NCBI GenBank assembly: GCA_048938855.1
Contig: JBHLLT010000025.1
Span: 1 to 33,909, forward strand
Origin: Promethearchaeota archaeon
Lineage (GTDB): Archaea; Asgardarchaeota; Lokiarchaeia; Sigyniarchaeales; SOKP01
Direction of reading: 5' to 3'
Length of the DNA: 33,909 nucleotides
Made by a program: the position numbers and the translations under genes. The notes beneath the pieces are model-generated. The model worked only from the letters and a program-made list of their open reading frames with translations, ran no database searches and had not been told where the DNA came from. Positions 8,115-17,908 of this stretch are shown piece by piece. The stretch's first letter is position 1, and each line of letters starts with the position of its first letter.

Positions 8115-9392
8115 TTGGTAGATTACATAAATCTGGATTACGTCCCAAGTGAAAATGATTTAGTAGCGATGTATTATGTGCAGATTTCACCAGAGTGTAA
8201 AAATTTACAGCAAGCTTCAGAAGAAATCGCAAAGGAAAGCTCTATTGGTACATGGACTGAGATTTCCACATTATCCCCTGAAATAGCAAAAAGGCTTAAA
8301 CCTTCAACATTTTATATTGACCATGATAATAGTATCATAAAAATTGCTTACACCAAAGAACTTTTTGAAGCAAACAATTTACCGCAGATTTTAAGTGCTA
8401 TTGCAGGGAATATATTTGGAATGAAGGTATTAAGGAATTTACGATTATTAGATATAAGTTTTCCTAAAGATATTGTTGATACATATAAGGGTCCAAAATT
8501 TGGGATTGAAGGTATAGAAGCATTAACACAAGTGAAGGATAGACCCCTTCTTGGCACGATTGTAAAACCAAAAGTTGGGCTTACAGAAATTGAACATTCT
8601 CAAGTATGTGGGGACGCTTGGCGTGGTGGATTAGATATTGTGAAAGATGATGAAAATTTGACAAGTATGACTTTTAATAAGTTTGAACAAAGAATAATAG
8701 AAACATTAAAGGTCAGGGATAAAGTTGAAATAGAAACTGGAGAACGGAAGTTTTATATGCCAAATATAACAGCACCTTTGAGCGTTATGAAAAAAAGAGC
8801 CGATTTTGTAATAGAAAATGGTGGCGAATATGTGATGGTAGACATTGTTACAATAGGTTTCTCGGCATTGCAGGAAATTCGAGATTACTTGGATGATAAG
8901 GATATTGTAATTCACGCTCATAGAGCAATGCATGCAGCTTTTACAAGGAATAAAAAACATGGAATGACTATGTTGGTATTAGCAAAGTTAATGCGACTTC
9001 TTGGTATGGATCAACTTCATACAGGAACTGTAGTGGGAAAGATGGAAGGTGGAAAGAAAGAAGTTTTAGAAATTAATAGAGTTATTACAGAGCAAAGAAT
9101 AACAGGAAATAACATGACATTGCTGGATCAAGATTGGAGAAATCTCAAAGGGATTTTACCTGTTGCTTCAGGTGGTTTAAGTCCATTGCATATTCCAGAG
9201 TTAATCGCTATATTAGGTAAAAATATGGTTTTTCAATTTGGAGGAGGATGTCATGGACATCCCATGGGAACTGAAGCTGGAGCTAAAGCAATTAGACAGG
9301 CAGTTGACGCAACTTTAGAAAATTATGAATTAAAGGAATATGCAAAGAATAATATTGAATTAGCGAAAGCTATTGAAAAGTGGGGAAAATAA
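8115..9392 (+). CDS. rbcL: Ribulose-1,5-bisphosphate carboxylase large subunit, form III
   Basis: ESSIGTWT, GTIVKPKVG, GLDIVKDDENL (carbamylated Lys motif), HAHRAMH, GTVVGKMEG (loop 6 Lys), PVASGG, QFGGGCHGHP. TTG start. Confidence 0.96.
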   Translation: MVDYINLDYVPSENDLVAMYYVQISPECKNLQQASEEIAKESSIGTWTEISTLSPEIAKRLKPSTFYIDHDNSIIKIAYTKELFEANNLPQILSAIAGNIFGMKVLRNLRLLDISFPKDIVDTYKGPKFGIEGIEALTQVKDRPLLGTIVKPKVGLTEIEHSQVCGDAWRGGLDIVKDDENLTSMTFNKFEQRIIETLKVRDKVEIETGERKFYMPNITAPLSVMKKRADFVIENGGEYVMVDIVTIGFSALQEIRDYLDDKDIVIHAHRAMHAAFTRNKKHGMTMLVLAKLMRLLGMDQLHTGTVVGKMEGGKKEVLEINRVITEQRITGNNMTLLDQDWRNLKGILPVASGGLSPLHIPELIAILGKNMVFQFGGGCHGHPMGTEAGAKAIRQAVDATLENYELKEYAKNNIELAKAIEKWGK

Positions 9393-9405
9393 CAATTTTT
9401 GCCAA

Positions 9406-10338
9406 CTATACCATTTCTGGATAAATTTTCTCAAAATAATTTGATACATGACTAGAAGCAAAAATACCTGCTTCAGTAATTAAACCATCTATATATCTTC
9501 TACTAACAGTTTCGAATGCAGGATTCAAAATTTCAATTCCTTCTGGAGGATCATTCCAAACTTCTTGAGGATCTCTCATTTCAATAACTTCTAATATCCC
9601 AAGATTAGTTTCTGGATTATACTTTAATAATGGAGATGCAACATAAAAGGGAACATGCTCTTCATGGGCAACTAACGCTAGCAATCTAGATCCAATTTTA
9701 TTTATAATAGTACCTTCGGAAGTTATACTGTCTGCTCCAATTAAAATTAGATCTACCTGATAATGTCTTACAGCCCATCTCATAGCGCTATCTATGACGT
9801 GAATGACTTCGATTCCTGCTTTTAATAATTTTTTTGCAGTTTTTCTTCCCTGTAACCTCGGTTGTGTTTCTGTATTAATTACTTTAAAATCTTTACCTTG
9901 TCTTTTAGCTTCTAAGAAAATACCAGTAACTAAACTTGAATGACAATGTGTCATCACGCTAAATTTTTGACCTTTGAGCGGAAAACGTCTAGCACCTATT
10001 TCTGCAATCTTAATTTTTGAATTTTGAAGCATTTCATAATATAAATCTTTATATTTTTCAATTATGTCAGAAATATATTCAGGGATAATTGTATTTTTTT
10101 CTTGTTCTAGTTTATTCATGATAAATTTTAACCCATTTTTCATTGCGGGTTCAGTCGGTCGAGTATCTATTAAGATTTCCCTTGCTTCGTAGAGTTTTTC
10201 AAAACATACATTAACATTTTCACACTTTAACCTTTTAGCATAATCACTCAGAAAACCTATAGCACTAATAGCTATATTACTTGCTCCTTGTATCTCTAAA
10301 GATTTTATCTTTTGAGCATCTTGTAATAATTGTTCCAT
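9406..10338 (-). CDS. Ribose-1,5-bisphosphate isomerase (eIF2B alpha/beta/delta family)
   Basis: EIQGA, TRPTEP, MTHCHSS (catalytic Cys), ETQPRLQG, GADSI (catalytic Asp), NKIGS, NPAFE. Start moved to MEQLL (10338); the extra 30 codons in the track overlap the neighbour and look non-coding. Confidence 0.88.
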   Translation of the reverse strand: MEQLLQDAQKIKSLEIQGASNIAISAIGFLSDYAKRLKCENVNVCFEKLYEAREILIDTRPTEPAMKNGLKFIMNKLEQEKNTIIPEYISDIIEKYKDLYYEMLQNSKIKIAEIGARRFPLKGQKFSVMTHCHSSLVTGIFLEAKRQGKDFKVINTETQPRLQGRKTAKKLLKAGIEVIHVIDSAMRWAVRHYQVDLILIGADSITSEGTIINKIGSRLLALVAHEEHVPFYVASPLLKYNPETNLGILEVIEMRDPQEVWNDPPEGIEILNPAFETVSRRYIDGLITEAGIFASSHVSNYFEKIYPEMV

Positions 10339-10420
10339 ATTGGAATACAACTTTAATTTTATTGATAATTTATTTATAGATTTGTAGAATTTAATCTTAC
10401 ACAAAAATGGTTTAATCCTC

Positions 10421-10612
10421 TTAAACATCCTCTGGATCTAATTCAGAATCCTCTGGATCTAATTCATAATCCTCAGGATCAATTTCAACATAGAATTGGC
10501 CAATATAACCACAAGAGCACTCGTACATATCAGGTGCAAGCCAACCTGAAACATTCACAGCGTTTTTTAAGTTGGGTTTTTTACATTTTGGGCAAATTTT
10601 GATTTTAACCAT
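10421..10612 (-). CDS. Small zinc-ribbon protein with acidic repeat tail
   Basis: CPKC...YECSCGYIG; tail IDPEDYE-LDPEDSE-LDPEDV. Confidence 0.8.
   Translation of the reverse strand: MVKIKICPKCKKPNLKNAVNVSGWLAPDMYECSCGYIGQFYVEIDPEDYELDPEDSELDPEDV
10427..10486. repeat. 21-bp tandem repeat, ~3 copies (coding)
   Basis: atcctctggatctaattcaga / atcctctggatctaattcata / atcctcaggatcaatttc. Confidence 0.9.
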
Positions 10613-13615: not shown

Positions 13616-14872
13616 TTATAAATTATCACTTTTTATCCTCGATATCACCGCAAATATTATAATTATTACTCCTAGTACTATAAATGTTAAATTTAAATTC
13701 CACATCACTAGATATCCGACGAGAGGGTAAAGAATTGCTCGTATAAGACTCGCTATCATGTTTATTGCACTTATAACGGTAGCTCTGTTTTCTGTTTTAA
13801 TTTGTTGATTTATGCCCTTAACAAATATCAAACTCCTTGAAAACCCAAAACCAATCACAATGAGAATTAAAGGAATGCTCACTGGAATATATTGGATTAG
13901 CGCCATTAAAATAAAGGCCATACCCGGAATTATTGTATATATTCTAAGGAATCTTCTCTTGTTATAGATTTTGTTTTCTAAAGTTGGAAGGATATTGTTA
14001 AAGAGAATTTGCACCAGTGTCACTGACATACTTACAAATCCAAAGAATATTAATTGAAAATTTAATGCTTCAAGGTAGACTTGATAAGTCCATATTAAGA
14101 AAAACACTAAAGCCTCTGTTATCACCATCTCAACAGCTAGTAATCTTAATATCTTATTGGTTGTGAGCTCTTTAATCCCAGATTTTACAATCGTCAAATA
14201 TTTGTCGTTTTTCTTTTTTTCCAAGTCATGATTAGGCTCCTTTAAAGTTAATGATATTATCGTTGCTAATATAAATGGTACAAATATAAGACTCATTACA
14301 AGATTCAATGAAAAATATGCACCGATGATCGATCCAACTGGTGCTGAAATTGCAATACCAAGCAAGCTAAAACTGCGATTTCGTGCCATAATTTTAGAAA
14401 TTTCGTTTTCTCTTCCAAGTTTTCTCAGTGTGTCATAAATAAATGCCATATTGGTCCCTGATGTTAAAGCAGCTCCTAAAGCCCATAAAGTTTCACCAAT
14501 GGTAAATATGATAATACTTGGATAACTTCCATAAATCAATCCAGCAAATGCCGTTGTCAAAGCTCCTAAAATCAAAGAAAATTTCCTACTTATGTAATCT
14601 GCTATTGCACCGCAAGGAATCTCAAATACCAATATCATAATAGTAAAATAACTTTGTAAGAACATTACCTCTACAAATGTTAATCTACCCCATGTCAAGA
14701 AAAATGGTAAGAGAATTCCTGAGATCAGATGAAATCCCTCAATAAAACTAATCAAATACGATTTCCATATGTTCGCTCTCCAAATCTCTAAATTTTCAGG
14801 AGAGACTTTACTTTCTAACTTTAAGGAAGATTCAACCAATTCTTCTTGAGTTAATTCCTTTAATTCTGACAT
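13616..14872 (-). CDS. MFS transporter
   Basis: FEIPCGAIADYISRK (motif A), SGTNMAFIYD, RATVIS; ~12 TM; SD-like GAGGT at 14884-14880. Confidence 0.92.
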   Translation of the reverse strand: MSELKELTQEELVESSLKLESKVSPENLEIWRANIWKSYLISFIEGFHLISGILLPFFLTWGRLTFVEVMFLQSYFTIMILVFEIPCGAIADYISRKFSLILGALTTAFAGLIYGSYPSIIIFTIGETLWALGAALTSGTNMAFIYDTLRKLGRENEISKIMARNRSFSLLGIAISAPVGSIIGAYFSLNLVMSLIFVPFILATIISLTLKEPNHDLEKKKNDKYLTIVKSGIKELTTNKILRLLAVEMVITEALVFFLIWTYQVYLEALNFQLIFFGFVSMSVTLVQILFNNILPTLENKIYNKRRFLRIYTIIPGMAFILMALIQYIPVSIPLILIVIGFGFSRSLIFVKGINQQIKTENRATVISAINMIASLIRAILYPLVGYLVMWNLNLTFIVLGVIIIIFAVISRIKSDNL

Positions 14873-15072
14873 TTTTTTAACCTCTTTTATTTATTTTCTT
14901 CTAATTTTTATTAAATTCTCAAAAAAACATATTTAGAGTCTCCATTGGGACGCTATTAGTGTCTGAGTGTATTAAATCAATCTTAGAACCCTGGAGTTTT
15001 ACCAAAAATATGAAAACAATTAATGAGAAAAGTTATTGAATGTTATAAAGTAAAAGATAAGTATCGGCGTGC

Positions 15073-15248
15073 TGTTGATTTCTATGTTTTTATGAGGATA
15101 ATGTTGCAGGGAAATATGATACATACCCTAAAAACATCATTACCATGATAATTTTATTACAATACGGATCATGAACTATCCCAGTATCTCGATGAGTTCG
15201 AATCCAATTATTTTCTCTAATTATCATGATACAATCAACAATAATGTT
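15073..15248 (-). ncRNA. Candidate structured cis-regulatory leader RNA upstream of the MFS gene
   Basis: Nested complementary pairs 15073-80/15233-40, 15141-53/15219-31, 15166-80/15191-205 and 15084-92/15129-37; mismatches resolve to G-U on the minus strand. Confidence 0.55.
15090..15227 (-). CDS. Putative 45-aa leader peptide (uORF)
   Basis: ATG(15227)..TAA(15090): MIIRENNWIRTHRDTGIVHDPYCNKIIMVMMFLGYVSYFPATLSS; below the ORF-track cutoff. Confidence 0.45.
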   Translation of the reverse strand: MIIRENNWIRTHRDTGIVHDPYCNKIIMVMMFLGYVSYFPATLSS

Positions 15249-15272
15249 TAATAAAACTATATTATTTTCAAA

Positions 15273-15280
15273 TATATAAA
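15273..15280 (-). promoter_or_regulatory. Putative TATA box for the MFS leader transcript
   Basis: TTTATATA on the minus strand, preceded by an A-run; about 25 nt upstream of where the structured region begins. Confidence 0.5.
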
Positions 15281-15287
15281 TTTTATG

Positions 15288-15348
15288 GGGGATTTCTCAT
15301 CATTCAGAGAAAATTATGTCAAAAATGGGAAAATGATGGGAAATCTCC
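15288..15348. terminator. 17-bp imperfect inverted repeat immediately 3' of the mutase gene
   Basis: ggggatttctcatcatt (15288-15304) / aatgatgggaaatctcc (15332-15348), 15/17 Watson-Crick pairs, 27-nt loop; function inferred only. Confidence 0.45.
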
Positions 15349-15351
15349 TTT

Positions 15352-16782
15352 TTATCTTTTAGAGATAACCAATCTCACAAGTTCAGCTGTTGCTTCACAA
15401 TAAACTCTTGCTAGTGAATCTCTTTTAGCTTCACTTATTACTCTAATAATCGGTTCTGTATTTGAGGGATGAATAAGAACAAACCAATCCTTTCCTCGAC
15501 CAAATCTAAGATCATTTTCTATTTGCTCCACATTTTCCCCTTCATTAATCAATTCTTCTTTGACTTTAATAATAAGAGAACCTGTATCAACATTTTTAAT
15601 GTTGATTTTTATTCTATGCGAATAATATTTTGGTAATTCTGATACTAATTGGGAGATATTCTTTTCGGTTTTTACCATTATCTCAATAATTTTTGCAGCT
15701 GCAAAAATCCCATCTCTTGTATTATTGAAGTAAGGGAACATAATTCCTCCACATGATCCTTCTCCACCAAATACTAATCGATCTTTTGATGAATTTGCTA
15801 AAAGATCATTCATTTTTTCACTTAAAAAACGTTCCCCTACAGGAGTCCGTATAACCTGAGCATTATATTTTTCTGCTATAGCCTCAAATCTTAAAGAGGA
15901 TGCTAAATTAGTAATAAAAACAGTTTGCTCGATATTATCCTCTAGATTTTTTAAATAATAATCCGTAATTAAAGCTAGGCTAATATCCTCGGGATAACAT
16001 TCTCCATTTTCGCTAATGATTGCTAATCTATCAGCATCTGTATCATGAGCAAAACCAATATCATACTTCCCTTGCCACACTTCCATTATTAAGTCTCTTA
16101 GATTTTCCTTTATGGGTTCAATTTCTCTTGGAAAATCTTTATTGGCAAGTATTTCATTATTTATTAATTTAATTTCACATCCCATTTCAGCAAGAATTAT
16201 TGGAGTGACCAGATTTCCTGCTCCTGCTCCCGAATCAATAACTACTCTAAGATTATTTTTTTCTTTAATATTTGGAATATCAATAAAACGCTTTAAATCA
16301 TGAATATAATCTGTAATGGGATTTATATTTTTAATATGTGATTCTGAAATTGTATGGATTTTTTTAAAATCATTCAAATCTATATTCTCTAAATATATAG
16401 AAACAATTTGTAAGTCATTAGTGTTTAAAAATGTCGTTTCAGATATTAATTTTAATCCATTCCATTCTTGAGAGTTGTGAGATCCTGTAATGATAATGCC
16501 AAATGGAATATTCAATTTATTTTTCGCATGAACTATTACAGGTGTAGGGCATATACCAAAATTTATAATTTCAAAACCAGATAAAATTAATCCCTCAATG
16601 ATTGCCTCTTCAATCAAGATTCCACTAGGTCTAGTATCTCTGCCTATTACTATTTTCTTATCCTTTCCATTAATTAATAATCCAAAAGCAATTGCTATTT
16701 TCTTAACAGTATCATATTTCAGATCTTTCTCAATACGACCTCTAATACCACTTAGAGTAAAAATTAAATCAGATTCTTCCAT
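15352..16782 (-). CDS. Alpha-D-phosphohexomutase family protein (PMM/PGM/GlmM-like)
   Basis: SGIRG, GRDTRPSG, TGSHN (phospho-Ser), DTDADR (metal loop), TPVGE, GGEGSCG, PSNTEPIIRV. Confidence 0.93.
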   Translation of the reverse strand: MEESDLIFTLSGIRGRIEKDLKYDTVKKIAIAFGLLINGKDKKIVIGRDTRPSGILIEEAIIEGLILSGFEIINFGICPTPVIVHAKNKLNIPFGIIITGSHNSQEWNGLKLISETTFLNTNDLQIVSIYLENIDLNDFKKIHTISESHIKNINPITDYIHDLKRFIDIPNIKEKNNLRVVIDSGAGAGNLVTPIILAEMGCEIKLINNEILANKDFPREIEPIKENLRDLIMEVWQGKYDIGFAHDTDADRLAIISENGECYPEDISLALITDYYLKNLEDNIEQTVFITNLASSLRFEAIAEKYNAQVIRTPVGERFLSEKMNDLLANSSKDRLVFGGEGSCGGIMFPYFNNTRDGIFAAAKIIEIMVKTEKNISQLVSELPKYYSHRIKINIKNVDTGSLIIKVKEELINEGENVEQIENDLRFGRGKDWFVLIHPSNTEPIIRVISEAKRDSLARVYCEATAELVRLVISKR

Positions 16783-16798
16783 TGTGTTCTTTCAATTT

Positions 16799-17794
16799 TT
16801 AGAAAATTATTTTATTTTTATCTATATTGTATTTAACCAGAGCTAATGCTCCTCTTACACCTATTTCATCATTATATTTTGTTAATTTTATATTTGGAGG
16901 GTGATTAATAGTAAATTTAATTGGATTTTTTTCAAATTGTTTAATGATATCAGGAATTATTTGATCTTTGTCTTTCATCATTGCACCTCCAAAATAAATC
17001 GAACTGCAATCGTAGTAATTGTTGACTAACCCAACACCTACTTTCATATAATATACACAATCTTCAACGATGCTATTTGATAATATATCTCCTTTTTTAG
17101 CAGCTTGAAAAACTTCTTTTGCTGTTATCTTTGTTTTATCATTATCAACAATTTTCATCAAAATACTCGCATCTAATTTTCCTTTATCCAACCCTTCTAA
17201 AGTTCTGTTTCTAACTCCTATTCCAGAGCTATAAGCTTCCCAACACCCATATGCTCCACAATTGCATTTTGCATTACTTTTTGAATTAACTTTTGCATGA
17301 CCAATTTCTGCCGCGTTTCCTTCTTTTCCTAGTAAAAGGTGTCCACCGCAAATAACTCCTCCACCTATTCCAGTAGACATTGTGATATATACTAAATTAT
17401 CTTTTTCTCCATCTTCAGCCTCAAAGAAATGTATTCCTAAAACGGATCCATTGCAATCATTAATAAAATATATTGGAATATTTGGGAATTCTTTTTTAAT
17501 TGGATCTTTTAGGGGAATGACTTTAAATCCAAGATTGGCATTATTAAATACCACTCCTTTTTCCATATTTAATGGACCTGCTGTAGCGATCCCAATTCCT
17601 AAAATTTTATCTTTTTGAATTTTATTTTCAGAAATCAATTCTGAAAGCATCTCGCACACCATTTTACTAATTGAAAATCTATTCTCCTTTACCGTTCTGG
17701 ATTTTTTTTTAAAAATATTATTTTCATTCAGATCTGATGTACAGATAGCAACTCGGACCCAAGTACCTCCAATATCAACACCAGCGATAAACAT
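16799..17794 (-). CDS. ROK family sugar kinase (glucokinase-like)
   Basis: GVDIGGT, INDCN, STGIGGG, EIGH..CNCGAYGCWE; no HTH. Start placed at MFIAG (17794) after a GGTGA SD. Confidence 0.93.
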   Translation of the reverse strand: MFIAGVDIGGTWVRVAICTSDLNENNIFKKKSRTVKENRFSISKMVCEMLSELISENKIQKDKILGIGIATAGPLNMEKGVVFNNANLGFKVIPLKDPIKKEFPNIPIYFINDCNGSVLGIHFFEAEDGEKDNLVYITMSTGIGGGVICGGHLLLGKEGNAAEIGHAKVNSKSNAKCNCGAYGCWEAYSSGIGVRNRTLEGLDKGKLDASILMKIVDNDKTKITAKEVFQAAKKGDILSNSIVEDCVYYMKVGVGLVNNYYDCSSIYFGGAMMKDKDQIIPDIIKQFEKNPIKFTINHPPNIKLTKYNDEIGVRGALALVKYNIDKNKIIF

Positions 17795-17908
17795 ACTACT
17801 CACCCTTATCATACAACTAAATTATTTGTCTTTTTCCTAACCTCGAATTAATATAAAGATTTCAAATATTTCAAATTATTATTATACAAATAAAAGTTTT
17901 TCTTAAGT

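Follow-up and report, generated by a model that had tools for sequence, protein, structure and literature searches.

Layout and distribution of the MFS leader

The window (i.e. the whole 33,909-nt stretch of Promethearchaeota DNA that was analysed) contains, on its reverse strand, a phosphohexomutase gene (pgm; 15352–16782) and, after a gap of 479 nt, an MFS transporter gene (13616–14872; 418 aa; Pfam MFS_1) with an SD at 14884–14880. The transporter is a distant relative of the HP1165, TetA(P) and Tet(40) efflux pumps, its NCBIfam matches lying far below the cut-offs. Located in the gap on the same strand is a 45-codon ORF (15090–15227; ATG to TAA), termed the uORF, for which the boundaries and translation given by an earlier sequence-only reading of this DNA were confirmed. 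Genes nearby encode a RuBisCO large subunit and an IF-2B-family protein (8115–10428), and a ROK kinase together with the phosphohexomutase (15352–17812).

The gap carries its own promoter elements. A direct repeat of two CCCA boxes with an 11-bp period (15325–15342) lies 5' of the promoter, is near-invariant in 22 orthologous intergenic regions, is retained at distant MFS orthologs whose upstream neighbours differ, and is a probable transcription-factor site. The TATA box (15273–15280), with a BRE-like run just upstream, has a fixed spacing within the genus and lies 51–60 nt 5' of the uORF AUG at the distant MFS-ortholog loci. Archaeal TATA spacing would place the start of transcription at about 15250–15249, i.e. 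~22–23 nt 5' of the AUG. A 17-bp inverted repeat (15288–15348), located 3' of the pgm stop and 5' of the TATA box and overlapping the direct repeat, was poorly kept in relatives. The direct repeat recurs in this genome, with 8 sites as compared to 3 for a reversed control, mostly intergenic and 5' of genes; besides 15325–15342, these are C49:410746–410763 and six one-mismatch sites, and they could possibly form the regulon of a transcription factor.

In covariance-model searches, 36 of 54 genus genomes each had a single copy of the element, which was also detected in four more genera of the same family. It was not found by this model in 19 genomes of other families, and there was no second copy in this genome. 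Examination of MFS orthologs at 50–65% identity added 14 loci with the promoter repeat, a TATA box, a P1-like motif and a uORF, of which 11 adjoin genes other than pgm. As these distant copies stand before MFS and away from pgm, which is itself present in 52/53 genus genomes as compared to 35/53 for the element, the element follows MFS and not pgm, and a role tied to pgm/glmM was rejected. MFS homologs at 31–44% identity in other families, and a paralog in this genome, showed neither this promoter repeat nor such a leader. In another family, four genomes (L145–L148) contain a near-identical 34-codon ORF ~580 nt 5' of a more distant MFS homolog, with no visible likeness to the uORF described here.

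Within the genus, no intact MFS ortholog was found without the element, except for one cut by a contig end. Members without the element also lacked an intact MFS ortholog, and several of them exhibited deletions through both. In L096, L104, L105, L108, L119 and L121, deletions in the pgm–uvrC interval, apparently independent of one another, have removed the leader and MFS wholly or partly, leaving fragments. Three genomes (G004, G077 and G119) have an intact element without MFS; in these the downstream SD and start were kept and head an ORF of 69–83 aa. An element in G006 that seemed to lie 150 kb from its MFS was discounted, there being an N gap after it. About half of the genus has a charged ORF of 37–102 aa (mostly 67–91) between leader and MFS (e.g. 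L110:2227–2478 on the forward strand, and also L058, L063, L068, L094 and others), which shares the SD and nearly the first six codons with the MFS start of this genome (14872–14855). The 69–83-aa ORF of G004, G077 and G119 is the counterpart of this intervening ORF, for which no family was found (atlas matches below 0.8).

Selection on the uORF

A frame of 45 codons or longer arose in 10% of shuffles of the intergenic region (P ~0.1), so the ORF of a single genome is not significant on its own. Preservation of the frame in related genomes had been named by the sequence-only reading as a test of the uORF. An AUG at the same place followed by an open frame was present in all 63 intact loci, all from one Promethearchaeota family (36/36 in the genus, 13/13 intact ones in other genera and 14/14 at the additional MFS orthologs). 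The frame spans 21–49 codons, with at least 33 codons in 59/63 loci; the position of the stop is not conserved and falls anywhere from codon 22 to codon 50. Among 48 aligned loci, the stretch that begins with the AUG and ends with codon 24 is free of indels and the single indel near codon 25 is of 3 nt, while 1-nt indels are present in the 5' UTR.

Stop avoidance was assessed by evolving the sequence of this genome along the tree. No premature stops were observed in 35 relatives, as compared to 26.8 expected under GTR with site rates and 14.9 under a second null allowing only the bases seen in each column (P < 1/3000). For codons 2–24 only, there were no premature stops in 47 relatives against 16.6 expected (P < 1/1500). 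The remaining five frames carry 27–107 stops. A BLOSUM test of conservativeness was uninformative because its null under-diverges, which makes the stop-avoidance test conservative. A small share of RNA run X1 provided unstranded contigs of relatives only, with 80–95% identity over 14967–15162 and parts of MFS.

The amino acids, by contrast with the frame, have drifted. Nei–Gojobori counts gave a pN/pS of 0.94–1.06 for the uORF versus 0.28 for MFS of the same genomes, and a third-position excess of substitutions was absent. The pS was 0.34 in the uORF and 0.62 in MFS, indicating that synonymous sites are themselves constrained; in unpaired uORF codons the pN/pS was 1.26. Comparison of the orthologs thus shows a uORF that is under selection to stay open and not for its amino acids, and that is apparently translated. 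Database searches returned 44 matches to the peptide, all named ones being Asgard-labelled hypothetical proteins, mostly of Promethearchaeota/Lokiarchaeia, and Pfam and NCBIfam searches gave no match. With a pN/pS of ~1, there was no conserved amino-acid stall motif under purifying selection of the kind expected of an arrest peptide, and no run of regulatory codons as in trpL/hisL-type leaders is conserved, the gene downstream being MFS. Nor was there a conserved transmembrane segment under purifying selection: a 19-residue hydropathy of at least 1.6 was reached in only 16/49 orthologs (1.64 for the C-terminal half in this genome), and many orthologs end already at codon 24–38.

One residue stands apart. 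Pro21 is kept in 59/63 loci, mostly by CCG (45) or CCA (12) codons, CCG accounting for 8% of prolines in the genes of the window. In helix P3 their pairing partner is the Trp8 codon, and base pairing would largely explain the conservation. Pro21 nevertheless persists where the usual partner has slid or been lost (G079, G157, G153 and G102), and in G132 (L122) a gain of 5 nt before the 5' strand of P3 is compensated by a loss of 5 nt beyond that strand, leaving codons 18–21 in frame and in place. These five loci with a slid, shifted or lost partner hint that Pro21 is kept for more than pairing. A sequence-specific stalling peptide of the ermC/cmlA type, the precedent cited by the sequence-only reading, is not supported as the default, and only this hint of one is left.

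Conserved structure of the leader RNA

The segment 15245–15068 of this genome folds as a three-way junction (z −2.76, single-sequence fold), and each of 22 tested orthologs folds better than its own shuffles (z −2.1 to −5.4). The family structure, helices P1–P4, was obtained from subgroup folds followed by direct counting of pairs; a misalignment of G109 and G121 at the 3' end precluded an RNAalifold consensus over all 48 sequences. P1–P4 were 79.5% paired over the 48 sequences with 96 double-change cells, a level reached by 0/500 shuffles and set against 29–46% for slid controls, in a shuffle test that is inflated by relatedness and for a structure derived from the same 48 sequences. No match beyond chance was obtained with Rfam covariance models, at either the gathering score or E < 10, and invariant unpaired bases are few among the 48 aligned loci.

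The junction is closed by P1, whose 5' strand (15234–15241; 93% of cells paired) pairs with 15072–15079. Inside this 5' strand, 7 nt 5' of the uORF AUG, is a weak SD-like hexamer that is present in 33/63 loci (mean anti-SD duplex of −2.6 kcal/mol). The P2–P3 arm (15143–15229; P2 87% and P3 71% paired) begins with P2 (15229–15220/15152–15143), which buries the AUG. Placement of the AUG in the 5' strand of P2 by the sequence-only reading holds in both the single-sequence fold and the family consensus, where the three pairs of the AUG are kept in 45, 48 and 47 of 48 sequences. In the core of P3, the Trp8 codon (15206–15204) pairs with the Pro21 codon (15167–15165), with G-C versus A-U and U-A versus C-G swaps. 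The P4 hairpin (15084–15139) has a family-consensus form (15139–15133/15105–15099) and a clade-specific alternative (15137–15126/15097–15084) that includes the stop. The UAA, which had been assigned to the 3' strand of P4, lies there only in the MFE structure of this genome; in the family consensus it is 6 nt past the helix. The broader proposal that the uORF threads through a structured leader was borne out by a conserved structure that overlaps the uORF and is tied to MFS.

Beyond P1 lies an untranslated linker (14935–15071) that is U/C-rich and G-poor (43% U, 18% C and 9.5% G over 48 loci), with no conserved frame on either strand in these loci. In the full-length mRNA, pairing is predicted between its first part (~15059–15047) and the region of the MFS start, the position of the partner varying among genomes. 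The linker is followed by the 3' strand of a long-range helix, P0, in which the first 10–12 bases of the transcript (here the first 11 nt as predicted, 15239–15249, overlapping P1 by 3 nt) are complementary to a conserved motif 50–70 nt before the MFS start (14921–14934). This motif ends in a U-run (U7 in this genome) and is a candidate site of premature termination; a U-run of at least 4 is present in 40/48 loci. Cognate P0 duplexes have a mean of −7.6 kcal/mol versus −6.0 kcal/mol for non-cognate ones, and none of 20000 permutations reached so low a value, which also holds when the other genera are taken by themselves; P0 covaries both within and between genera. The G-U pairs retained in the helix speak for pairing at the RNA level rather than an inverted repeat in the DNA. 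P0 had a probability of >0.5 in 36/48 transcripts cut just past the U-run, whereas in full-length folds it mostly gave way to pairing between the linker and the MFS start region. It is weak or degenerate in this genome (−3.2 kcal/mol; probability 0 in the nascent transcript).

No bacterial-type terminator (i.e. a G+C hairpin followed by a U-run) was found in the leader. When ribosome footprints were imposed at codon 1, 8, 21 or 29 or at the stop, equilibrium folding produced no consistent switch, and both the accessibility of the MFS RBS and P0 stayed largely unchanged. Taking promoter, structure, frame and distribution together, comparative analysis identifies this as a real, undescribed and family-wide structured leader with a selected uORF.

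Candidate mechanism and relation to known systems

The features established by comparison are a conserved promoter of its own, a structured leader of ~380 nt, a selected uORF and linkage to MFS. On these grounds we consider it reasonably probable that the leader is a cis-acting, ribosome-coupled attenuator of the MFS transcription unit, with the larger share of this likelihood assigned to control of transcriptional output and the smaller to control of translation. The ribosome-dependent attenuation suggested by the sequence-only reading keeps its foundation, a conserved open uORF in a structured leader linked to MFS, but not a switch that footprint folding can reproduce. Attenuation would probably operate by termination at the U-tract through aCPSF1.

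The AUG would be accessible for no longer than RNA polymerase needs to complete the 3' strand of P2, ~80 nt later and at ~110 nt of RNA. As P2 would close over the AUG this early, the uORF would be read mainly co-transcriptionally, by a ribosome following the polymerase. In the normal state, this ribosome would complete the uORF and depart, exposing ~140 nt of U-rich untranslated RNA and the U-run, at which intrinsic or aCPSF1/FttA-dependent termination may end most transcripts ~50 nt before the MFS start. The terminated product would be a short RNA of ~330 nt with ends able to pair (P0). Slowing or stalling of elongation on the uORF, by ribosome-targeting compounds or other translation stress, could lead to a different leader fold and to read-through into the pump, with the fixed, rare-codon Pro21 as a candidate pause site. 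A second layer acting on translation may exist, given the predicted pairing of the linker with the MFS start. In its most specific form, i.e. ribosome speed on a sequence-free uORF gating aCPSF1/FttA termination via a helix between the first bases and a U-run 320 nt away, so that ribosome stress would induce an efflux pump in an Asgard archaeon, the proposal is tentative.

A Lokiarchaeota aCPSF1 works in vivo and terminates at U-rich sites, and archaeal termination has no strict need for a hairpin (PMC7515710); U-rich RNA is preferred by aCPSF1/FttA (PMC11616081). Exclusion of FttA by ribosomes in archaea is still a hypothesis (PMC11616081, PMC8116511). Full-length aCPSF1 (TIGR03675) was above the cut-off in 5/5 relatives and was not found above it in this assembly, which contains only a 435-aa beta-CASP paralog without the KH part; the missing gene is probably unassembled. 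Two different 16S rRNA 3' ends (C18 and C40) occur in this assembly, in line with 7% contamination. Weighing against the cis-attenuator are this missing aCPSF1, the lack of a switch in footprint folding, the degenerate P0 of this genome, the three genomes that keep the element (and the downstream start region) without MFS, and the variable stop position.

The same three genomes, together with a promoter belonging to the element, the pairing of its two ends and the U-run at its terminus, would suit a different role for the ~330-nt P0-closed unit, namely a stand-alone or dual-function, translated small RNA that acts in trans, with MFS merely co-transcribed by read-through. The sgrS gene precedes setA in E. 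coli, and this arrangement of a small RNA followed by a read-through transporter gene is the likeness in question. A trans-acting RNA is nonetheless rather improbable here: the element is single-copy, was found only immediately 5' of MFS genes from this lineage or of their start region even after rearrangement, was deleted or cut along with MFS several times, and has no invariant single-stranded seed across the family. A ligand- or protein-binding, riboswitch-like leader, in which the open frame is secondary, would account for a covarying three-way junction 5' of a transporter and for codon-level conservation that tracks base pairing. This seems improbable given the few invariant unpaired bases and the lack of an Rfam match, and it leaves unexplained a stop avoidance that persists against a null keeping the bases of each column.

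The remaining readings concern the product of the uORF. An independent small membrane peptide partnering the transporter, the alternative offered by the sequence-only reading, draws on the hydrophobic C-terminal half seen here, on the prediction of the ORF by gene callers in 44 database proteins and on its co-occurrence with MFS; it is unlikely for a peptide with a pN/pS of ~1, strong hydropathy in just 16/49 orthologs, frequent termination at codon 24–38 and an AUG buried in a conserved helix. The buried start codon of a small ORF and the long-range end pairing are also reminiscent of a type I toxin-antitoxin-like toxin mRNA silenced by pairing of its 5' and 3' ends. This is very improbable, there being no conserved membrane helix, no purifying selection, no conserved antisense unit seen, and a single copy strictly tied to one transporter. 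That the ORF arose by chance within a conserved non-coding RNA would fit its frequency in shuffles of a single genome (P ~0.1) and the lack of a third-position substitution excess, but is scarcely credible against stop avoidance at P < 1/3000, a 5' part without frameshifting indels and a frame open in 63/63 loci.

The kept-open frame and drifting peptide of the preferred cis-attenuator suggest a gene switch that senses ribosomes, for which bacteria offer established examples. The leader is compact and occurs throughout the family in ~60 natural variants; with its promoter defined, its helices covarying and a candidate for the terminator, it could be moved into a tractable archaeon for testing and, if ribosome-gated termination proves true, would be a natural locus for probing ribosome-FttA exclusion in archaea. 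By their defining tests, the element is neither an intrinsic-terminator attenuator, an arrest-peptide leader nor an amino-acid leader, and it is not a small membrane protein.

Ribosome-mediated attenuation is textbook knowledge for bacteria; for archaea, no report was found in the literature collection searched, which is incomplete. In the bacterial ermCL, cmlA and cat86 systems, the uORFs are short and encode a stall motif of specific sequence, and stalling of the ribosome there opens the RBS hairpin directly. The present leader resembles ermCL–ermC (PMC5499644) and cmlA/cat86 in having a uORF 5' of a resistance-like gene and, here, a predicted pairing between leader and downstream start. It differs in that the peptide drifts and, in folding, the ribosome footprint neither reaches nor opens the RBS pairing. 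Ribo-seq of Methanosarcina mazei and Haloferax volcanii has revealed translated small ORFs in 5' UTRs that were proposed as uORFs (PMC11456600, PMC10117724); the available text of these two papers describes no attenuation mechanism or conserved RNA structure, and the word attenuation is absent from it.

Closer counterparts are uORF-dependent Rho attenuators (i.e. mgtL–mgtA, corL–corA and tnaC–tnaAB), in which a pyrimidine-rich untranslated stretch follows the uORF and, for mgtL, Pro codons matter (PMC12360218). Shared with these are a uORF, apparently translated here, in a structured transporter leader, pyrimidine-rich untranslated RNA after it and, putatively here, factor-dependent termination. 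Rho is bacterial, whereas the equivalent in this archaeon would be aCPSF1/FttA acting on U-rich RNA; moreover, the linker is U-rich and not C-rich, and there is no conserved arrest peptide. The bmrB leader of the Bacillus subtilis bmrBCD operon contains a 53-codon uORF that ends >100 nt upstream of a drug-transporter gene and whose translation is required for antibiotic-induced read-through (PMC4191407). Both are long uORFs in transporter leaders that end far upstream of the gene, although the two leaders are not expected to be homologous. bmrB is bacterial, has intrinsic terminator/antiterminator hairpins within the uORF and controls an ABC transporter (PMC4191407), whereas the leader described here has an archaeal TATA promoter, no hairpin-U terminator, a three-way junction with a helix between 5' end and U-run, and an MFS gene. 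Overall, the leader would appear to work most like bmrB and the Rho-linked mgtL, corL and tnaC leaders.
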